A DNA stretch of 64,000 nucleotides from contig CAYPSF010000001.1 of NCBI GenBank assembly GCA_964413165.1, positions 1,238 to 65,237 on the forward strand. Reading direction: 5' to 3'. The stretch comes from an uncultured Bifidobacteriaceae bacterium. GTDB taxonomy: Bacteria; Verrucomicrobiota; Verrucomicrobiia; Limisphaerales; UBA11358. The notes below the pieces were generated by a model. That model was not told the origin of the DNA. It made no database searches and saw only the letters and a list, made by a program, of their open reading frames with translations. This document shows, one piece after another, positions 2,337-64,000 of this stretch. Within the stretch, counting starts at the first letter, position 1. Every line of letters starts with the position of its first letter. Position numbers and translations under genes: made by a program.

Positions 2337-3746
2337 TCAAACGCACCAGAAGCGCGGGTCTTTTTGCCGGTAAAAAAGGTTGTACGCGCAGGCCGGAATC
2401 AGGCGGCCTTCCGGATCCGGCACCTGGTCCGGGCAGGCCACCAGCCGCGCCAGATCGAGCGTGTCCTCGTCCATGTGCGAATGGATGTAAACCGCCAGGA
2501 GTGATTCTTCGGCGACCGCCTGTCGTGCCGCCCGGGTCAGTGCCTGCCCCTGGGGATACATCCGTTCCACCAATCCGCGGATGGCCGGCAGGAGTTTTGA
2601 ATCATCGCCGGCTGCCCACAGCCGGTCGATGGCCGCCCGGAAAACTTCCTGGCTGTCATCCTCCGGTTGCAGGAGATAACCCTGTCCCAGCATCTGCCGC
2701 AGTTCCGCCACGGTGAGAAAATCCGTCAGAGACCGGTACGCACCGTTGTCCTTGAGATAATACGCGACGCTGTAACAGAGCGGATGCGCCCCGGCATGCG
2801 GGAAAAAGTGGGCCGCACCCATGGCGCCCCCGGTGGCGGATTCGATCGCCTTCACCGCGCCGTCCAGCGGCATGGTTTCCCGCGGCCGGAAATTTTTCCC
2901 ACCCTGGCCGGTAAAGGTCATCGTCTGAATGGTCACACTGCGCACCACCGGGTGGGCCCGGGCCAGTTCAATGACCCGTCCGATCTCGTCTTCGTTAACT
3001 CCCCGAATCATCACGTTGAGCAAAGTCGTGCCGATGCCGAAGCGTTGCAGGTTTTCCAGCGCCCGGTGTTTCAGACCCACCACATCCTTGCCGTAAATTT
3101 TCAATGCCCGGTCGGCCTGAAACGTGTCGAAGGAAAGAATCACATAAACCCCGAGGTCGGCCAGCGCCCGGCACAAATCTTCGTTGGTCGCCAGTCGCAG
3201 GCCGTTGGAGTTCATGGTCACGCGCCCGATTTCCGGCCGGCGGCATTCCCGCAACAGCTCCACGATCTGCGGATGCATGGTCGGCTCCCCGCCCGTGATG
3301 TTCATCAGGTCAAACGGACCGGCGCGGGCGATGAGTTTGTCGAGCAACGATCGCAGTTCCTCGCGCGTCATGAAATATTTCCGGTCCGGCCGGTTGTAAG
3401 TGAAGCAAATCGGACAATCCAGGTTGCACGCGTTGGTCACCGAAAACACCGGCAGATGGCAGGCATTGGCGTGGAAGCTGCAGGGACCGCAATCGTGCGG
3501 ACAACCCCGATGAACTTCGCCTCCCGGCAGCCGGGCCGGTTTGCAACGCACCGTCGTGGCCACGCGGTCCAGGTACCATTCCACCCCGTCGGCAATCCGC
3601 ACCCGGCTTGTCCCGCATTTCGGGCACAGCCGTTCCTGATAAACCGCGCCACCTTTCTCCAGAATCCGCGCGGGAAGCAGGGCGCGACATTCCCGGCACA
3701 TGCCGCGCACGGTTCCCAGGTAAGTGTAGGATCGGGAAGGCCTCAT
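2337..3746 (-). CDS. Radical SAM enzyme with N-terminal zinc-ribbon (COG1964/MJ0619/Tes-like architecture), paralog 2
   Basis: 469 aa. Motifs: C17xxC20...C41xxC44 ribbon, GCPHDCGPCSFHANAC cluster, CNLDCPIC radical SAM motif, GGEPT, and C-terminal ACPDQ...IPACAYN. It is colinear with the 225..1610 product. Confidence 0.85.
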   Translation of the reverse strand: MRPSRSYTYLGTVRGMCRECRALLPARILEKGGAVYQERLCPKCGTSRVRIADGVEWYLDRVATTVRCKPARLPGGEVHRGCPHDCGPCSFHANACHLPVFSVTNACNLDCPICFTYNRPDRKYFMTREELRSLLDKLIARAGPFDLMNITGGEPTMHPQIVELLRECRRPEIGRVTMNSNGLRLATNEDLCRALADLGVYVILSFDTFQADRALKIYGKDVVGLKHRALENLQRFGIGTTLLNVMIRGVNEDEIGRVIELARAHPVVRSVTIQTMTFTGQGGKNFRPRETMPLDGAVKAIESATGGAMGAAHFFPHAGAHPLCYSVAYYLKDNGAYRSLTDFLTVAELRQMLGQGYLLQPEDDSQEVFRAAIDRLWAAGDDSKLLPAIRGLVERMYPQGQALTRAARQAVAEESLLAVYIHSHMDEDTLDLARLVACPDQVPDPEGRLIPACAYNLFYRQKDPRFWCV

Positions 3747-4204
3747 GCGATGACGGCCTCCTCCGGTTCGTAAATCTCCGAGAAGAGCACGCGCAGGTTG
3801 GCCGGATCCATCAGTTCCGCTGCAGGTACGGGCACAGCCAGGCAGCCCAGTCCGCTGATGATTGTCTGACCATTCACCCGTCCTTCGCCCGACAACTCAT
3901 ATCCGTCATCCCGCTGACGTGCGAGGGTCACCTTCATCTGCAATTGTTGACCCGGCAAAAGAAAACCGTGGAAGCGCACTTCGGAAATTCGCACCACCAT
4001 GCCGGTTTCCTTGAAGTCCGATGACAGCAGGATGAGCCAGTTGCCCAGTTGCAAAAAACTTTCCAGCAGCAAGGTCTCCGGCAACCGGGGCTCGTCGCCA
4101 AAAAATTCCTTCAGGCAGTATTCCTCGAAGGACACCGCCTTGATGCCGCTGATGCTTTGATATGGCGACCAGGCGACGATTTTGTCCACGAGCCGGAATT
4201 TCAT
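3743..4204 (-). CDS. Hotdog-fold (FabA/FabZ-like) beta-hydroxyacyl-ACP dehydratase
   Basis: 153 aa. It starts MKFRLVDKIV, the same N-terminal signature as the other dehydratase in the cluster (MRFFLLDKIT). Size and position are consistent with a hotdog fold. It overlaps both neighbours by 1-4 bp. Confidence 0.65.
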   Translation of the reverse strand: MKFRLVDKIVAWSPYQSISGIKAVSFEEYCLKEFFGDEPRLPETLLLESFLQLGNWLILLSSDFKETGMVVRISEVRFHGFLLPGQQLQMKVTLARQRDDGYELSGEGRVNGQTIISGLGCLAVPVPAAELMDPANLRVLFSEIYEPEEAVIA

Positions 4205-57260: not shown

Positions 57261-58271
57261 ATGAAAAAATATCTGTTGCTGGTGCTGTTCAGTTTGACCG
57301 TCGCGGTCTGCCACGCCGAGGGGCCTTATCATTTCATCAAGGAAATCCCCATCGGTGGCGACGGCGGCTGGGATTACTGCTCCGTGGATTCAGCGGCGCA
57401 ACGCCTTTACGTCTCGCACGGGACCAAGGTCGTGGTCATTGACCTCGCCCAGGACAAGGTCATCGGCGAAATCACGAACACCCCCGGGGTCCATGGCCTT
57501 GCGCCGGCGGCCGATTTGAAGCTGGGAATCACCAGCAACGGTCGTGAAAACAAGGCAGGCATCGTGGACTTGAAGACGCTGCAAACGCTTTCCAAGGTGG
57601 ACACCGGTCAAAACCCGGATGGGATGCTTTACGAACCCGGGCAGCGGGAATTTTACACGTTTAATGGACGCGGCCAATCGGCCACGGTCATTGATGCCAA
57701 ATCAGCCAAGGTGGTCGCCACGATTCCGCTCGCAGGCAAGCCGGAATTCGCGCAGGCCGATGCCAACGCCTGGCGTGTCTACGACAATCTCGAAGACAAA
57801 AACGAAGTGGTGGCCATCGATACGAAAACCCATAAAGTAGTGAATCGCTGGCCTATCGCGCCAGGCGAGGAGGCTTCCGGCATGGCCATTGACGTGGCGA
57901 ATCATCGGCTGTTCCTCGGTTGCGGCGGCAGCAAGACGATGGTGATGATGGACAGCACCAGCGGCAAGGTCATCACCTCGGTGCCGATCGGGCAGGGGGT
58001 GGACGCCAACGCATTCGATCCGGGAACCGGGTTCGCCTTTGCCTCGTGCGGCGATGGGACGGTCACCATTGCGCACGAAGACTCGCCGGACAAACTGACC
58101 GTGGTGCAGACGTTGGAAACCCAGCGCGGCTCGCGAACCATGACCCTCGATCCCAAGACGCACAAGATTTACCTGGCCGCCGCCAAATTCGAGGCCCCGG
58201 CCGAAGGCCAGCGGCGCGGGAAGATGGTCCCGGACAGTTTCAAGATCCTGGTGTACGGAATGGAGAAATAA
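57261..58271 (+). CDS. Secreted YncE/YVTN-like beta-propeller protein
   Basis: AAAGGAG RBS, then MKKYLLLVLFSLTVAVCHA signal peptide. GGWDYCSVDSAAQRLYVSHG...VVVIDL, with repeated ...N.V.VID..T.KV units. Confidence 0.7.
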   Translation: MKKYLLLVLFSLTVAVCHAEGPYHFIKEIPIGGDGGWDYCSVDSAAQRLYVSHGTKVVVIDLAQDKVIGEITNTPGVHGLAPAADLKLGITSNGRENKAGIVDLKTLQTLSKVDTGQNPDGMLYEPGQREFYTFNGRGQSATVIDAKSAKVVATIPLAGKPEFAQADANAWRVYDNLEDKNEVVAIDTKTHKVVNRWPIAPGEEASGMAIDVANHRLFLGCGGSKTMVMMDSTSGKVITSVPIGQGVDANAFDPGTGFAFASCGDGTVTIAHEDSPDKLTVVQTLETQRGSRTMTLDPKTHKIYLAAAKFEAPAEGQRRGKMVPDSFKILVYGMEK

Positions 58272-58278
58272 TTATTCC

Positions 58279-58983
58279 ATGAAATTGCAAACGAACGGGC
58301 AAATGCTGTTGTTGGCGTTTGGCGCGCTCGCTCTGGCTGGTTGCGCGAACATTTCTCCAGAGAACCATGCCCAGGATTCAACGCCGCGGTTTTCCCGTCC
58401 GCAGGCCATCACCAATCCTTACCTGCCGCTGGTGTCCTTGAAACAGGATGTGCTCGAAAATCCATCCGGCCGCGTCGAGCGCACCGCCAAACCGGACGTG
58501 CACAAGACTTTCCGGATCGGCGGCCAGACGGTCGAAGCGTTGGTGGTGGAGGACCGGGATTATGAAAACGGCAAACTGACGGAGGTCACGCTGGATTATT
58601 TTGCCCAGGACGACGCGGGCACGGTTTATTATCTCGGCGAAGACGTGGATGAATACAAAGACGGCAAGGTCGTCGGCCACGGCGGCACGTGGTTGTGGGG
58701 CAAGGACACCCAACAGCCGGGCGTCCTGATGCCGGCGCATCCGCGGGGGGGCGACCGGTTTCGTGCCGAGGACGTGCCGCATATCACCTGGGAGAACGAC
58801 GAAGTGGTTTCGGTTTCGGAAACCGTGATGGTGCCAGCGGGGACCTATCAAAATTGCGTGCGAATCAAGGAGACCGCCTCCGACGGTGCGACGGAATATA
58901 AATTGTATGCGCCGGGCGTAGGCTGTGTGAAAGAAATCGAAGGCAAGGCCGAACTGCCGTTGAAATCCCACACGACCCGATGA
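58279..58983 (+). CDS. Lipoprotein, hypothetical
   Basis: 234 aa. The lipobox LLLAFGALALAGC is followed by a soluble domain. Confidence 0.6.
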   Translation: MKLQTNGQMLLLAFGALALAGCANISPENHAQDSTPRFSRPQAITNPYLPLVSLKQDVLENPSGRVERTAKPDVHKTFRIGGQTVEALVVEDRDYENGKLTEVTLDYFAQDDAGTVYYLGEDVDEYKDGKVVGHGGTWLWGKDTQQPGVLMPAHPRGGDRFRAEDVPHITWENDEVVSVSETVMVPAGTYQNCVRIKETASDGATEYKLYAPGVGCVKEIEGKAELPLKSHTTR

Positions 58984-59037
58984 GGGCTGCGACATTTTTG
59001 CGTTTCAACGTTTCAACAATTTAACGATTCTCGATCC

Positions 59038-59712
59038 ATGCGTGTACTGGTCGTCGAAGACGAGAAGAAAACGGCGTCGTTCGTCCGCAAGGCGTTGCAG
59101 GCCGAAGGTTTTGCCGTGGACGTCTGCCACGACGGCGACGAGGCCCTGGCCGCGGCGCGGGCCACGCCCTTCGACGGCATTGTGCTCGACATCATGCTGC
59201 CGGGCCGCGACGGTTTGAGCGTGCTGCGCCAGTTGCGCGAACGCAAAAACGCCACGCCCGTCCTGCTCCTGTCCGCGCGCGGCGAGGTTAACGAGCGGGT
59301 CGAGGGCCTGAACGCCGGCGCGGACGATTACCTGCCCAAGCCCTTTGAGCTGGCCGAACTGGTCGCGCGAGTGCGCGCGTTGACGCGGCGGAGCGGCGAA
59401 AACAAGTCCACCGTCCTGCGCGTGGCCGACCTCACGCTGGACACGGTCACCCACCGGGCCCAGCGCGACGGAGCGGACATTGAACTGACCGCGCGCGAAT
59501 ATCGCCTGCTGGAATTTCTCATGCACTCCCCCGGCCGCCTCTGCGGACGCATGATGATCCTCGAAAAGGTCTGGGACTACGACTTCGATCCCGGCACCAA
59601 CCTGGTGGACGTTTATATCCGGCGGCTGCGCGAAAAAATTGACGCCAATTTTCAACCCAAGCTGCTCCACACGGTGCGCGGTTCGGGTTACCTGCTGAAG
59701 GAAGCACCATGA
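59038..59712 (+). CDS. OmpR-family response regulator, heavy-metal (CusR/CopR/CzcR) type
   Basis: MRVLVVEDEKKT..., LDIMLPGRDG, GADDYLPKPFELAELVARVRAL and TNLVDVYIRRLREKID..FQPKLLHTVRGSGYLL closely parallel E. coli CusR (recalled from memory). Confidence 0.9.
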   Translation: MRVLVVEDEKKTASFVRKALQAEGFAVDVCHDGDEALAAARATPFDGIVLDIMLPGRDGLSVLRQLRERKNATPVLLLSARGEVNERVEGLNAGADDYLPKPFELAELVARVRALTRRSGENKSTVLRVADLTLDTVTHRAQRDGADIELTAREYRLLEFLMHSPGRLCGRMMILEKVWDYDFDPGTNLVDVYIRRLREKIDANFQPKLLHTVRGSGYLLKEAP

Positions 59713-60770
59713 CCATCCGCACGCGGCTCACCTTCTGGTATGCCGGCATTCTGACCGCGTCGCTGCTGGTGATCGGTTTTGGCACCTACCGGGAGATTGA
59801 CGAGCGGTTGCGCCACGAACATCACCGGGAACCGGAGGAGCACGCCCTGGCCGAGGCGGGGGAGATGATTTTTCAGGTGGGCCTGCCCGCCATTGTGCTG
59901 GGGCTGCTCGGCGGCTGGTGGCTGACCCGCCGGGCGCTCGCGCCGATGACTAAGCTGACGGACGCCGTGGAAAAAATCCACGAACGCAATCTGCGCGAAC
60001 CGCTGCCTCGCACGGGCAATAACGATGAACTGGACCGGCTGACCGATGTTTTCAACGGCATGCTGGCGCGGCTCGACGACTCCTTCAACCGCACCCGCGA
60101 GTTCACCCTGCACGCTTCGCACGAGCTCAAGACGCCGCTCACGGTCTTGTGCGGCGAAACCGAGACCGCCCTGCGCGATGACTCGCTGGCGCCCGCCGAA
60201 CGCGAACGCGCGGCCAGCCTGCTCGACGAATTGCGCCGGCTGACCCGCATCGTGGACGGTCTCGCGCTGCTGGCCAAGGCTGACGCGGGCCAGGTCGCGC
60301 TGAAGCTGGAACCGATGCGGTTCGACGAGTTGGTGCGTGACAATTTCGCCGATGCGCAAATCCTGGCCGAACCGCACGGCATCCGGGTGGAACTGACCGC
60401 CTGCGAGGAAATCACCGTGCGCGGTGACCGCCATCGTTTACGCCAGTTGTTGCTGAACCTCGCGGATAACGCCGTCAAATATAACCAGCTGCGGGGCTGG
60501 GTGACGATGAGCTTGCGCCGGGCGGGCGACGCGGCTGAATTGACCATCGCCAACAGCGGGCCGGGGATTCCGCCAGAAATTTTGCCGCGGGTATTTGACC
60601 GGTTCTATCGCGGCGACCCGGCTCACAGCCAGGCGGTGGATGGCTGCGGCCTGGGTCTAAGCATCGTGCAATGGATTGTTTCCGCACACAAAGGAAGCGT
60701 CAAAATCGAATCGATGCCCGGGATAAGCACCACGGTCACAGTCCGCCTGCCGCTGGGCGCAAATAGATGA
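59709..60770 (+). CDS. Sensor histidine kinase (heavy-metal type) with minimal His-rich extracytoplasmic loop
   Basis: 353 aa. Two TM segments flank a ~30-aa loop, followed by a HAMP-like region, H-box HASHELKTPLT, and N/G boxes NAVKYN and GLGLSIV. It overlaps the response regulator gene by 4 bp. Confidence 0.9.
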   Translation: MTIRTRLTFWYAGILTASLLVIGFGTYREIDERLRHEHHREPEEHALAEAGEMIFQVGLPAIVLGLLGGWWLTRRALAPMTKLTDAVEKIHERNLREPLPRTGNNDELDRLTDVFNGMLARLDDSFNRTREFTLHASHELKTPLTVLCGETETALRDDSLAPAERERAASLLDELRRLTRIVDGLALLAKADAGQVALKLEPMRFDELVRDNFADAQILAEPHGIRVELTACEEITVRGDRHRLRQLLLNLADNAVKYNQLRGWVTMSLRRAGDAAELTIANSGPGIPPEILPRVFDRFYRGDPAHSQAVDGCGLGLSIVQWIVSAHKGSVKIESMPGISTTVTVRLPLGANR

Positions 60771-60873
60771 AACATTCAACATCCAACATCCAACAACAAA
60801 CATCCAATTCCGAAAGGACGAAACATTTGGAATTCGTTGGGCGTTGGATGTTGGATGTTCGATGTTGGATGTT
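60771..60873. repeat. Intergenic hairpin element with 7-bp-periodic arms (AACATCC type)
   Basis: Left arm aacattc aacatcc aacatcc aacaaca aacatcc aattcc. Right arm ggaattc gttgggc gttggat gttggat gttcgat gttggat gtt. Confidence 0.8.
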
Positions 60874-62299
60874 CCTTGCCCCAATTCTTGTCATTACCGG
60901 TTGCGCCCGGTTCCAGCCGCAGCCGGTCTTGCCGGAACAAACCGCGGCACAACTGGAGGCCCGGCGACTCGACGATGCCGGCCTCCAGAAATTCCTCGAA
61001 AAAAACCTCGGCCATGATCTGCCCGGCTGGCCGCTGTCCGAATGGGACCTGAATTCACTCACGCTGGCCGCGTTTTATTTCCATCCCGACCTGGACGTGG
61101 CCCGGGCGCAATGGCGGCTGGCTGAGGCGGGTGTCAAAACCGCCGGCGCACGGCCGAATCCGTCGGTGACCGTAACGCCCGCCTATGACAATCAGATTCC
61201 CGGTACCCCGAGCCCATGGATTTTGCCGGTGACCGTCGACTTGCCAATCGAGACCGCTGGCAAACGCGCCAAACGTATCGCCGAGGCGCGGGATGTCTCC
61301 GAATCCGCCTGGTGGGGGCTCATCACGGCTGCCTGGCAGATCCGCAGCGGGGTCCGCGCCGGTCTGTTGGATTTCACCGTCGCCCAACAGCGTGCGGATT
61401 TGCTCGCGAAGCAACTGTCGACGCAGGAGCAAATCGTGAAATCGCTGCTACAACGCTATGATGCCGGCGAAATTTCCCGCCCGGACCTCGCCAGGGCACA
61501 AATCGCCCTGAGCAAGACCCGACTGGACGCAAGTGACGCGCAAACCACGCTCGCCAACGCCCGTTCGGAGCTGGCCGAAGCGCTCGGGGTCGGCGCCGCC
61601 GCCCTGGATGGAATGAATCTGGCGTTTGATTTTTCCGCCCGCGCGCCCGACGACCTCACCTCGCGGGCGGCGCGGCGAGTCGCCTTGCTGGGGCGTTCGG
61701 ATATTCGCAGCGCTTTGGCCGACTACGCGGCGGCCCAGGACGACCTGCGGTTGCAAGTCGCCAAACAATATCCGGACCTGCATCTGGGACCCGGTTACGC
61801 CTGGAATTCCGGCAACAACGCCGACAATGAATGGAGTCTGGGCCTGACCCTGGAGCTGCCGATCCTCGACCAAAACCAGGGGCCGATTGCCGAGGCCAGG
61901 GCGCGGCGGGAATTGGTTGCCGCGCAATTTACCGCCCTGCAGGCAAAAGTTATTGGTGAAATTGACCGGGCCGTGGCGGGTTACCATGTGGCAGCGGAAC
62001 AATTGAAAACCGGCGAGACGTTGCTGGCCGCTGAACGGCAACAGGAACAATCCACTGAGGCCCAGCAAAAGGCCGGCGCCGCCGACCGGCTCGATCTGCT
62101 CAGCGCGCAGGTCGAATTCGAGACGGCGGCGCTGGCGCACCTCGACGGCCAGGTAAAATATCAAACGGCGCTCGGCACGTTGGAAGCCGCCTTGCAACGT
62201 CCCGCGGATGCCCTGTCGGTAACAGCCAATGCCAGCATCCTGACGAACATCGTCCGGCAGCCGTTTCCGACTTCCCCAGCCCAGGAGCACAAACCATGA
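60869..62299 (+). CDS. Outer-membrane efflux lipoprotein (TolC/CzcC family)
   Basis: Chosen start MFLAPILVITGCARF (lipobox). Two OEP-type repeats. The ORF-track start at 60767 would translate the hairpin repeat (HSTSNIQQQTSN...). Confidence 0.85.
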   Translation: MFLAPILVITGCARFQPQPVLPEQTAAQLEARRLDDAGLQKFLEKNLGHDLPGWPLSEWDLNSLTLAAFYFHPDLDVARAQWRLAEAGVKTAGARPNPSVTVTPAYDNQIPGTPSPWILPVTVDLPIETAGKRAKRIAEARDVSESAWWGLITAAWQIRSGVRAGLLDFTVAQQRADLLAKQLSTQEQIVKSLLQRYDAGEISRPDLARAQIALSKTRLDASDAQTTLANARSELAEALGVGAAALDGMNLAFDFSARAPDDLTSRAARRVALLGRSDIRSALADYAAAQDDLRLQVAKQYPDLHLGPGYAWNSGNNADNEWSLGLTLELPILDQNQGPIAEARARRELVAAQFTALQAKVIGEIDRAVAGYHVAAEQLKTGETLLAAERQQEQSTEAQQKAGAADRLDLLSAQVEFETAALAHLDGQVKYQTALGTLEAALQRPADALSVTANASILTNIVRQPFPTSPAQEHKP

Positions 62300-63312
62300 A
62301 CCCGCCCATAAAGAATATTCTGACCGCCCTCGCCGCGTTTGCCGCCGGCGCCGCGCTGGTTTTTTACTTTGTCAAAGTCCAGCCCAAGCCCAGTGGCGCC
62401 GCCGGGGACGAAGGCGCGACGACGAGCCCGGTGCAACTCAAGCGTGACGCGAACGGAGCCACCGTCGTCGTGCTGGACACGGAAACCCGGCAAAGGCTTG
62501 GCTTGAAGACGGAAGCGCCGGTGGCCCGGCGGTGGCAACCGGAGGTAAAAGGCTATGGCAGCGTGATTGATTCGGCCACATTGTCGGCGGCGATTGCCGA
62601 GTTGGAGTCCGCACGGACCGCGGCCGAGGCGTCGGGCCAGGAGTACTCCCGGCAACAGGCGCTGGCGGCACAGGATAACGCCTCGGCACGGGTGCTTGAA
62701 GCCGCCCGGGCTGCCGCGACCCATGACCAGCTGGGTTTTGAATCCGGCCGCGCGAAATTTGCCATCGATTGGGGCCAATCGCTGGCCGGGCAAACGAACC
62801 TGGACATGCTGCTGCAGCAGCTCGCCAACGGGGAAGTCACGCTGGTCCGCGTCGATTTGCCCGCCGGTCAAGTCCTGTCCCCGCCCCCTGCTTCGGCACG
62901 AATTGTCGCGCTGACGGATGAAACAAAGTCCGTCGACGGAGACTTATTCAGTGCCACCCTGGGCGTGAATCCGGTAACGCAAAGCCAGGTTTTTTTGTAT
63001 CTGATCAAAGGCCAGCCCCTGGCCCCGGGCGCGGCGGTCACGGGTTTTTTGAAAAATGCCGGCGAACCGGTAGCGGGCGTGGTCGTATCCTCCGGCGCCG
63101 TGCTGCGGTACGAGGGCAAGGGCTGGATTTACGTCCAGAACGGCTCGAATGATTTTACCCGCACGGAAATTTCCCTCGACCATCCGGCGGAGAACGGCTG
63201 GTTCGTTTCCGGCAATCTGACAGCCACCAACCGTGTGGTCGTTGGCGGGGCGCAGACGGTCCTGTCCGCGGAATTGAGCGGCGGCAATTTCAACTCCGGT
63301 TCACGCGATTAA
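62296..63312 (+). CDS. Efflux periplasmic adaptor (membrane fusion protein, CzcB/CusB-like)
   Basis: 338 aa. N-terminal TM segment ILTALAAFAAGAALVFYF. A coiled-coil-rich middle. C-terminal beta-barrel-like ...GWIYVQNG...FTRTEISL. ATGA overlap with the OMP gene. Confidence 0.75.
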   Translation: MNPPIKNILTALAAFAAGAALVFYFVKVQPKPSGAAGDEGATTSPVQLKRDANGATVVVLDTETRQRLGLKTEAPVARRWQPEVKGYGSVIDSATLSAAIAELESARTAAEASGQEYSRQQALAAQDNASARVLEAARAAATHDQLGFESGRAKFAIDWGQSLAGQTNLDMLLQQLANGEVTLVRVDLPAGQVLSPPPASARIVALTDETKSVDGDLFSATLGVNPVTQSQVFLYLIKGQPLAPGAAVTGFLKNAGEPVAGVVVSSGAVLRYEGKGWIYVQNGSNDFTRTEISLDHPAENGWFVSGNLTATNRVVVGGAQTVLSAELSGGNFNSGSRD

Positions 63313-63382
63313 TGGCCGAGCCACACATGAAATCGGAATTCCATACACTCGACCCAATCGCAGGAGAACGCACCATTGCGTC

Positions 63383-63425
63383 TCCCTCTCCCCTCAACGG
63401 GGAGAGGGTTGGGGCGAGGGGTGAG
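63383..63425. repeat. Terminal inverted repeat, left copy (itself a 10-bp-stem hairpin)
   Basis: tccctctcccctcaacggggagagggttggggcgaggggtgag. Its reverse complement matches 63896..63938 at 41 of 43 positions. Confidence 0.85.
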
Positions 63426-63843
63426 CCGGCGATTGATCATTCGCTTTCTTCAAATGCGTCGGCAGCCTCACTCGTTTCTCCGGTTGCACATTTCCCGAAT
63501 GTGGCGCGCGTGTTTGCAGGTCGTTCCAGATTGTTTCGTGCACCCAGCGAACGTCTTTCAGTTGTGAATTCCAAAAACGCCGTGTTTCAATATTACGCGT
63601 CTTCAAATAATCGTCGCGTGCGGCATCTTTTGCCTGTGGTCCGGGAAATCCGTGCTGACCGCCGTCCAGTTCGAGGTTGTAACGCGCCTCGGCACAAAAC
63701 AAATCAAGGAAATGTTTGCCGACCTGATGCTGGCGGCGGAATTTGTAAGCCGAGAACCTCCGGTCGCGGAGAATTGCCCACAATTTTTTCTCCGCCCAAG
63801 TGGATTTCCTGCGGAGGAGGCGGGGAATTTGCGAGGAATTCAT
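63394..63843 (-). CDS. DUF559 (Vsr/PD-(D/E)xK-like) endonuclease-domain protein
   Basis: 149 aa. EKKLWAILRDRRFSAYKFRRQHQVGKHFLDLFCAEARYNLELDGGQH...D..RD.YL is the DUF559 signature. The C-terminal AHPSPQPSPR is encoded by the left TIR. Confidence 0.8.
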   Translation of the reverse strand: MNSSQIPRLLRRKSTWAEKKLWAILRDRRFSAYKFRRQHQVGKHFLDLFCAEARYNLELDGGQHGFPGPQAKDAARDDYLKTRNIETRRFWNSQLKDVRWVHETIWNDLQTRAPHSGNVQPEKRVRLPTHLKKANDQSPAHPSPQPSPR

Positions 63844-63895
63844 TGCCGATGGGTGTAGTCGGGGAGATTGGGTGGTTCAAGCGGTATTTTGCATT

Positions 63896-63938
63896 CTCAC
63901 CCCTCGCCCTGACCCTCTCCCCGTTGAGGGGAGAGGGA
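63896..63938. repeat. Terminal inverted repeat, right copy
   Basis: ctcacccctcgccctgaccctctccccgttgaggggagaggga. Confidence 0.85.
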
Positions 63939-64000
63939 ATAGCTGACGGAAGTCCGACATTATTCTGTGATGTCTGTCTGGCGACGATCGTGGTGCTCCA

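Follow-up and report, generated by a model that had tools for sequence, protein, structure and literature searches.

What are a small nuclease gene and the inverted repeats that frame it doing between two genes of an efflux operon? This question is raised by one end of a 64,000-nucleotide stretch of DNA from an uncultured bacterium of the Verrucomicrobiota (contig CAYPSF010000001.1 of GenBank assembly GCA_964413165.1; the whole analysed stretch is called the window and the locus in question W, the other loci compared being labelled L001, L012 and so on). W is a 556-bp module (63383-63938) that consists of inverted arms around a minus-strand gene of the DUF559 family and lies between the adaptor and pump genes of a tripartite efflux operon of the resistance-nodulation-division (RND) type. 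The arms match an already published dispersed repeat, BoxC/PIT/TM_ECO, and DUF559 genes recur next to units of this type in distant bacteria. We favour, with about even confidence, the interpretation that W is an old, gene-bearing member of the BoxC/PIT/TM repeats, that its DUF559 protein would be the cognate nuclease of these units, and that the module persists in the operon because it is bridged by an open frame. We hold more tentatively the wider proposal that YcjD-type DUF559 proteins would be the missing partner of the BoxC/PIT/TM repeats across phyla and that gene-bearing copies have evolved, or have been filtered, to be translatable antisense to the gene.

A DUF559 nuclease gene between two copies of a dispersed repeat

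The two 43-nt arms (Table 1) are complementary at 41 of 43 positions (95%), with both mismatches in the short spacer that follows the hairpin (TTG versus TCA). Each arm starts at its outer end with a 10-bp hairpin, CCCTCTCCCC-N5-GGGGAGAGGG, a pattern that has two matches in the 64 kb, both of them in the arms, and none in 100 shuffles; folded as single-stranded DNA, the arm stems reach -12 to -14 kcal/mol (z of -2.0 to -3.4). The G-rich third block, as read from the sequence, mirrors the purine block with one mismatch (C). The left arm encodes the last 16 codons of the gene (...HPSPQPSPR), with the TGA stop codon in the hairpin loop; this tail is a read-through by-product, given that the predicted structure combines a confident core with a disordered tail, and in other clades the DUF559 ORF (open reading frame) terminates ahead of the arm. 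The leader spacing is constant in the closest clade: 8 of the 9 closest cassettes have 57 nt between the end of the pattern match and the start codon. All these observations on the repeats, their hairpins and the encoded tail agree with a preliminary description made from the letters of the window alone.

Knowledge of BoxC/PIT/TM repeats in E. coli goes back to the 1990s, and BoxC/PIT is said to have been described also by Hoyne/Maher in 2000. The published consensus reads 5'-CCCTCNCCC-N3-6-GGGNGAGGG-N3-GGGNGAGGG (PMC4666352). Both arms fit it if a first loop of 7 nt is accepted, which is 1 nt above the published 3-6, and they are the only two matches in the window, with none expected. By this match, the arms are copies of the published dispersed repeat and not the private termini of a cassette that the preliminary description took them for. 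The E. coli version, TM_ECO, is present in 23 copies in MG1655; its types A (TTA) and B (CCG) differ in the second loop, and inverted pairs always combine A with B (PMC4666352). Triplex formation by the E. coli units was demonstrated in vitro through measurements of CD (circular dichroism) as well as NMR (nuclear magnetic resonance), and TM loci are associated with rearrangement; mobility-related genes were never found near TM motifs, and the authors left the origin and mechanism of the repeat unanswered (PMC4666352). An intrastrand purine-motif triplex is putative for the W arms, the in vitro proof being limited to E. coli sequences. Like the published units, those of W are intergenic and form an inverted pair with differing second loops; unlike them, the W pair encloses a nuclease gene, belongs to a Verrucomicrobiota host, has the 7-nt first loop and carries the C mismatch in the third block, and the published account includes no associated mobility or nuclease gene (PMC4666352). 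Two other readings of the arms are disfavoured. The G runs also fit a G-quadruplex pattern, which was set aside on the published CD/NMR support for triplexes of the E. coli units. The loop variants might stem from decay of methylated CCGG sites from C to T, as handled by a Vsr-like enzyme, but the stable A (TTA)/B (CCG) dichotomy that has been published speaks for two types that are both maintained.

DUF559 is a very large protein family. The W protein covers positions 4-108 of the 109 of the Pfam profile PF04480 (E = 1.1e-24, 86.9 bits against a cut-off of 20.6), and there is no other DUF559 gene in the window. Its sequence matches the protein of PDB entry 3HRL (E = 7.8e-14). In the AlphaFold2 model, residues 1-112 form the core (predicted local distance difference test, pLDDT, of about 88), and the tail, residues 113-149, is predicted to be disordered; the core superposes on 3HRL (template modelling score 0.83), on 3R3P, the catalytic domain of the homing endonuclease I-Bth0305I (0.82), and more weakly on Vsr (1CW0), and PvuRts1I/AbaSI are matched as well. 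The motif D-x10-ExD-x3-H is conserved, D47, E58, D60 and H64 being invariant or nearly so. Judged by the predicted structure and the motif, the protein is a Vsr-like PD-(D/E)xK nuclease with predicted catalysis, so that the Vsr fold proposed in the preliminary description holds in the model. Comparison of the W gene with clade members yields dN/dS ratios of 0.06-0.13 with saturated synonymous sites (dS >1), a signature of strong purifying selection. The best relative is 79% identical, and relatives are common in metagenome-assembled genomes of Verrucomicrobiota.

An exact look-up of the W protein returned no record, because gene callers annotated an antisense ORF on the same-strain contigs. 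Defence-system libraries produced only a weak partial match to DpdF (E = 5e-4). No DUF559 homologue was found in 50,697 phage records; the hairpin is present on 29 viral contigs, in no case (0/29) with a DUF559 gene. Scans of the cassette for sigma-70-like promoters and intrinsic terminators detected none, and no terminator-like T tract is present; an Rfam scan gave one chance-level microRNA match and nothing else. DUF559 is the only Pfam family match in the cassette, with no match to a transposase family, and no target-site duplication was found at the borders; with inverted arms and neither of these features, W is not an insertion sequence or a miniature inverted-repeat transposable element (MITE).

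Table 1. Positions of the module, its parts and the adjoining genes in the window
Feature	Position	Strand	Remarks
Left arm	63383-63425	+	BoxC/PIT/TM_ECO-type unit, G-rich on the + strand
Left arm, pyrimidine block	63384-63393
Left arm, first loop	63394-63398
Left arm, purine block	63399-63408
Left arm, second loop	63409-63411		TTG
Left arm, third block	63412-63421		GGGCGAGGGG
DUF559 (YcjD-family) nuclease gene	63394-63843	-	149 aa, Pfam match
Leader between right arm and DUF559 start codon	63844-63895	-	52 nt
Right arm	63896-63938	-	BoxC/PIT/TM_ECO-type unit as in the left arm
Right arm, pyrimidine block	63937-63928
Right arm, first loop	63927-63923
Right arm, purine block	63922-63913
Right arm, second loop	63912-63910		TCA
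Right arm, third block	63909-63900
Left flank, adaptor stop to left arm	63313-63382		70 nt
Right flank, right arm to pump ATG	63939-64000 in the window		77 nt in total, to 64016
Bridging ORF	63312-64000, on to 64022 beyond the window (L001/L003)	+	antisense to DUF559
Outer-membrane factor gene	60767-62299	+	Pfam OEP (PF02321), E = 4.4e-45
Periplasmic adaptor gene	62296-63312	+	ORF, 338 aa

The module in relatives from Verrucomicrobiota

Flanking inverted arms of the W architecture were found at 43 of the 52 genomic loci retrieved via the DUF559 protein. When a strict unit pattern was applied to 53 cassettes, both units were at the expected places in 36, mostly with a total length of 525-560 bp: the upstream unit ends about 50-80 nt ahead of the gene, and the downstream unit overlaps the stop codon or begins within about 12 nt after it. 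Between cassettes in unrelated contexts, the outer ends of the hairpins mark the exact limit of similarity, and the type of hairpin loop clusters together with the protein clade. The pairing of two arm types is seen both in cassettes and in gene-less doublets of Verrucomicrobiota, and the relatives' loci carry many further copies of the unit. A metagenome scan with the exact 25-nt hairpin detected at least 120 loci, the rest of which, apart from those with a DUF559 gene nearby, are single units or gene-less inverted pairs among the matches listed.

Tandem arrays of gene-less inverted unit pairs adjoin DUF559 genes at several loci (L039 1287-2709, L021 3149-6372, L034 4579-4853 and L038 3611-4894), with six pairs at a period of about 256 nt in L039; units follow each other at fixed spacings that differ by orientation, about 50-57 or 67-69 nt for one and 84-87 or 122-128 nt for the second. 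At three loci, the DUF559 cassette is located inside very long frames of 1084-1564 codons (L016 1-4693, L034 1382-4918, L053 1397-4651; minus strand). In L034 and L053, these frames also hold the flanking unit pairs, and a CarboxypepD_reg domain begins well downstream of the cassette, so that the long frame there looks like an N-terminal extension and not like an interrupted gene.

Pairing of DUF559 genes and units across phyla

A tblastn search of the W protein against plasmid records, some of which are mis-filed chromosomes, led to six lineages. The hits include two E. coli chromosome records filed as plasmids, with 45-47% identity, presumably to ycjD. In E. coli K-12 (L184, NC_000913.3 1351204-1351760), ycjD (b1289), which we take to be the only DUF559 gene of this strain, ends in ...SPSP*, with its TGA inside a degenerate unit, and some 165 nt downstream lies TM_ECO no. 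9 (1351204-1351239), next to which the 3' end of ycjD is partly duplicated. All 5426 complete E. coli genomes carry the TM unit, the median being 17 places. While ycjD is present in phylogroups A/B1/C, its site is occupied by the RND operon eefRABCD in phylogroups B2/D/E/F, and antisense transcription and translation were noted at ycjD (PMC12817139), a possible parallel to the open frame across W described below. YcjD thus resembles the W protein in family, in the stop codon inside a unit with a full unit downstream, and in its variable location where other strains have an RND operon (PMC12817139), but differs in that the K-12 units are on the 3' side only and ycjD lies beside, not within, an operon.

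In S. meliloti, two units lie on each side of the gene, in the order (unit, unit) gene (unit, unit), and the arms of 114 nt show 96% complementarity; in Sphingomonas, the DUF559 gene is located between two pnt transhydrogenase subunit genes with units on both sides; in Azospirillum, a unit doublet lies immediately upstream of the gene; and both NGO0050 of N. gonorrhoeae, the 3HRL protein, and a gene on a Synechocystis plasmid have units at both ends. The Sphingomonas gene (L186, NZ_CP155755.1 67228-67623) is in sense orientation in the pnt operon, its stop codon 1 nt ahead of the next start. Overall, the layout of a unit, about 55 nt, the gene, and an inverted unit at the stop or within 12 nt of it is found in Verrucomicrobiota, Alpha-, Beta- and Gammaproteobacteria and a cyanobacterium. 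The preliminary description held that its picture would fall if the repeat were ubiquitous, with no preference for DUF559 genes, and the pump intact; the repeat is indeed ubiquitous and REP-like and the pump intact (see below), but the association is strong from the side of the gene (43/52) and crosses phyla.

The blocks of the unit vary by lineage, for example CCCTCCCC / GGGGGAGGG / GGGTGGGGG or CCTCTCCC / GGGAGAG / GAGAGAGGG, and in each lineage the third block remains a mirror of the purine block despite the changed sequence. Either a triplex or a protein that reads all three blocks would demand such co-variation, which also bears on the possibility that the arms are cis-acting elements of expression, either an operator or leader together with a 3' stabiliser of the DUF559 mRNA or stem-loops that set the ratio of adaptor to pump, with no DNA transaction involved. 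Stable GC hairpins would form in RNA too, and REP-type (repetitive extragenic palindromic) hairpins within operons stabilise the upstream mRNA; yet purine-motif triplexes are not formed in RNA (PMC4666352), the W locus has no terminator-like T tract, gene-less pairs and arrays exist, and PIT elements, as far as the citation in PMC4666352 goes, have neither promoter nor terminator activity. We regard this explanation as improbable.

A literature search, in which subscription journals were not covered, found no link between DUF559/YcjD and BoxC/PIT/TM or REP-like repeats. One published survey lists 'DUF559 domain-containing protein', without comment, as enriched for flanking inverted repeats, with an odds ratio of 14.3 among predicted targets of programmed inversion (PMC9881135). 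Taken at face value, this enrichment, together with the occurrence of both orientations relative to the host operons among the loci, would fit a DNA switch in which recombination at the arms inverts the gene between them. Such a switch is highly improbable at W: no recombinase is encoded nearby, the orientation is the same in 5 of 5 same-strain contigs and in the distant L012, and the enrichment in PMC9881135 follows from the flanking inverted repeats themselves.

Insertion at the junction of the adaptor and pump genes

The preliminary description placed the cassette where the pump gene is expected and correctly reported no pump start before the end of the window. An exact look-up of the adaptor led to five same-strain metagenome contigs that are identical to the window across the cassette, and these encode an intact 1036-aa RND pump of the ACR_tran family (PF00873), the ATG of which (MLRRLVEISLKSRG...) is at the window equivalent of 64016, 16 nt beyond the window end. 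Thus, the cassette does not replace the pump but is held in a 703-nt spacer between adaptor and pump.

Whether this spacer represents an insertion can be judged from a series of junctions built from adaptor orthologues (identities are those of the adaptor to that of the window). The junction is empty in L181/L182 (72%) and in L183 (66%), where the adaptor TAA is followed by 2 nt and the pump ATG. In L179/L180 (74%) it holds a barstar gene (Pfam E = 9e-18). The closest relative, L178 (77%), retains a homologue of the 70-nt left flank of W, followed by a decayed hairpin (CCTTCCCTCCCCTCAACGGGGCGAGGG) and unrelated sequence, without a DUF559 gene. L012, an outgroup to the series (50%; pump 77% at the amino acid level, with 74.6% nucleotide identity to W in the pump region), has the full cassette in the identical place and orientation. 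Neither flank of W is present in the empty sites. By this comparison, a junction that is normally 2 nt long received the W module together with about 150 nt of additional flanking DNA as an insertion, which bears out the earlier suggestion of a discrete unit inserted in the efflux operon. Insertions of small genes seem to favour this junction. The barstar gene (3519-3848), which encodes a 109-aa RNase inhibitor, is tightly coupled on both sides (TAATATG ... TAAAATG).

The decayed remnant in L178 and the occupied junction in the distant L012 mark the insertion, on sequence grounds, as old; it is either ancient, with several losses or replacements, or happened twice, and the weak similarity of the immediate flanks of W and L012 favours common descent. 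Accordingly, of the earlier picture of a mobile cassette, the discrete unit stands, with conservation that stops at the hairpin ends, whereas nothing points to recent mobility: a target-site duplication and near-identical copies elsewhere were not found, the junction is also occupied in L012, and dS is saturated.

These data bear directly on an active selfish cassette of the homing type, in essence the model of the preliminary description, the nuclease of which would cut empty target sites, compact gene junctions among them, so that double-strand-break repair copies the cassette in. Empty and filled states coexist at one junction, which is filled in W and the outgroup L012 and not in nearer relatives, as two targeted insertions could produce; the predicted fold resembles I-Bth0305I, and contigs often break inside the gene. 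However, the borders have neither a conserved target nor a duplication, the cassette accounts for all but about 150 nt of the inserted DNA, near-identical copies were not found, and cassettes at orthologous sites diverge in step with their flanks, with saturated dS and with the flank similarity of W and L012 pointing to common descent. The protein has some 110 structured residues with no separate DNA-binding domain, and no carriers were found among the phage records. We therefore consider active homing distinctly unlikely, and W, which displaces no pump, is probably not a homing cassette; while the observations of the preliminary description are confirmed, its interpretation is partly supported.

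An open frame across the module

On the plus strand, a single frame bridges the adaptor and the pump genes. Its ATG at 63312 overlaps the adaptor stop (TAATG), with gene callers using the ATG at 63327; no stop interrupts it anywhere in the cassette, and its end at 64022 overlaps the pump ATG (ATGTTAA). It is this frame (231 aa; 231-236 aa depending on the start), and not the DUF559 gene, that gene callers annotate. A matching arrangement, ending in ATGCTGA, is found in L012 (3810-4517), and L178 (3531-3787) has kept an 84-aa bridging ORF despite the loss of the DUF559 gene. Similar covering frames occur in unrelated operons within the clade of W (L008 3828-4523 and L015 440-1342), and in L006 (3273-4556) the antisense frame runs into a downstream cytochrome c gene. 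Covering antisense frames were also observed in L020, L027, L028 and L033; the end of such a frame typically overlaps the start codon of the following gene.

Could this ORF be the real gene and the DUF559 match incidental? It is called on all same-strain contigs that are long enough and is tightly coupled to both neighbours. Its product, however, has no family match and is, by eye, poorly conserved between W and L012, against 76% conservation of the DUF559 core in the same pair, and the DUF559 match (E of 1e-24) is under strong purifying selection. A protein-coding gene on the plus strand in place of the nuclease gene is hardly credible.

Among 36 well-bounded cassettes, a covering ORF is present in all seven that lie antisense between two co-directional long ORFs and is mostly missing where the neighbours are convergent or divergent; in sense-oriented cassettes, the DUF559 stop overlaps the next start. 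In the antisense phase concerned, host genes have 3-6 stops for every 149 codons, and a null model based on codon resampling was well calibrated on them (87 antisense stops observed, 90.9 expected). In 7 of the 9 cassettes of the closest clade, the coding part contains no antisense stops, with a per-gene chance of about 0.04-0.25 for most clade members. The stop-free frame may reflect selection, or survivorship, for translation through the insert, by which coupling would be kept and polarity avoided. Comparable in this respect are the palindromic elements of Rickettsia, which Ogata et al. in 2000 reportedly described as tolerated inside reading frames. As in such elements or MITEs, a palindromic insertion is free of stops in the direction of host translation; in contrast to them, the W frame bridges two genes or extends the next N-terminus instead of lying inside a mature protein, and the element carries its own antisense gene.

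A candidate cognate nuclease of the repeat

The pattern of a nuclease gene between inverted copies of a dispersed repeat, with gene-less inverted doublets elsewhere, matches that of REP/REPIN elements and their RAYT transposases (REP-associated tyrosine transposases), and it is for this reason that DUF559 is proposed as the cognate nuclease. According to PMC3116915 and PMC3337134, these too are dispersed GC-rich palindromic units, often in inverted doublets, with a low-copy, vertically inherited nuclease gene between inverted units and most units far away. The likeness would be one of working and not of membership, given that the nuclease is no HUH transposase: the only family match at W is DUF559, a predicted Vsr-fold PD-(D/E)xK nuclease in place of an HUH Y1 tyrosine transposase, and the W units carry an extra triplex-type third block. 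Among Vsr-like nucleases, I-Bth0305I (3R3P) and NGO0050 (3HRL) resemble the W protein in the predicted core, and NGO0050 is flanked by related units; W differs in having no intron or intein context and no extra DNA-binding domain, and, unlike in vsr-dcm pairs, no cytosine methyltransferase adjoins the gene.

Under the favoured interpretation, DUF559 would serve the BoxC/PIT/TM units as RAYT serves REP/REPIN. Folded or palindromic units would be recognised and nicked by the protein, after which further copies of the unit, now and then with the gene included, would arise at other intergenic sites through repair, template switching or gene conversion; the same activity could cause the local rearrangements reported for TM motifs. 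Within the operon, the module would owe its persistence to one frame that has no stops in the operon direction: having finished the adaptor gene, ribosomes could read on across the insert as far as the start codon of the pump and terminate there, so that polarity would be avoided.

Several points weigh against this interpretation. The action of DUF559 on the units, that is, binding and cutting, and the copying mechanism are what we infer from the RAYT analogy. A DUF559 gene is nearby at only 6-7 of the 120 hairpin loci among the matches listed (about 5%), the window holds no copies of the unit besides the W arms, and E. coli lineages without ycjD (PMC12817139) still carry the TM motif. The clustering of loop types with protein clades is equally expected from plain co-inheritance. 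With regard to the insertion mechanism, about 150 nt of the inserted DNA lie outside the module from arm to arm, the borders carry no target-site duplication, and near-identical cassettes were not found in different contexts. Finally, the number of independent sites behind the statistics on the context of the bridging ORF is about 24, with p of about 0.01 by hand calculation.

An alternative is passive association, in which units and DUF559 genes gather in permissive or unstable intergenic spots and the nuclease has an unrelated role, such as nicking at mismatches or damage. Most units have no DUF559 gene nearby, TM loci are reported to be prone to rearrangement (PMC4666352), and the adaptor-pump junction is a hot spot that also received the barstar gene in L179 and another palindromic repeat in L178. 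Chance gathering is difficult to reconcile with the fixed geometry, in which the start codon follows about 52-57 nt after the end of one unit and the partner unit is at the stop in dozens of unrelated contexts, and with the recurrence of the pairing in at least six distant lineages, even where the unit sequence has changed; in E. coli, we estimate the chance of such proximity at about 0.2% (23 units in 4.6 Mb). We regard passive association as unlikely.

The efflux operon and its surroundings

The genes around W form a tripartite RND efflux operon with a CzcCBA/Cus-like layout and a putative metal specificity. On the same-strain contigs, gene callers start the outer-membrane factor at 60827 (490 aa). 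The adaptor protein of W has no Pfam match of its own, but one 50%-identical relative is named a membrane fusion protein, a few relatives carry PF25967, and in the loci compared the gene is always located between OEP and ACR_tran genes.

The same-strain contigs have no differences inside the cassette and give no population information because their mismatches cluster at contig ends. Two of them, L004 and L005, stop inside the DUF559 gene (window positions 63616 and 63603), and many DUF559 relatives are on very short contigs, which suggests that assemblers break at this multi-copy family. Sharp divergence from the window was observed at the ends of L001 (3-370, window 59532-59895) and L002 (1-940, window 58160-59100), in both cases inside two-component regulator genes; it may stem from strain mixtures or chimeric assembly.

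A second palindromic repeat, with AACATCC-like heptamers and 37-nt arms that are 84% complementary, is located at 60771-60873 of the window, between the sensor kinase and outer-membrane factor genes; by starting at 60767, the long ORF runs through it and probably makes the OEP gene too long. A relative of this palindrome is found in the adaptor-pump junction of L178 (about 3640-3715).

Implications

If the favoured interpretation is correct, W points to a second partnership of the REP-RAYT kind, between a Vsr-fold nuclease and a DNA unit made of a hairpin plus a third strand, which would explain the origin, the spread and the local genome instability of the BoxC/PIT/TM repeats. The link between DUF559 and these repeats is apparently undescribed and gives a concrete candidate for the question of where the triplex repeat comes from; E. 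coli, with ycjD and TM_ECO and with natural ycjD-plus and ycjD-minus lineages, is a ready model. For annotation, the locus exposes a problem, in that the antisense ORF is called instead of the nuclease gene, and for this reason DUF559 cassette genes are under-counted. The DUF559 family would gain its first functional context, and insertions in tightly coupled operons may persist by staying translatable.

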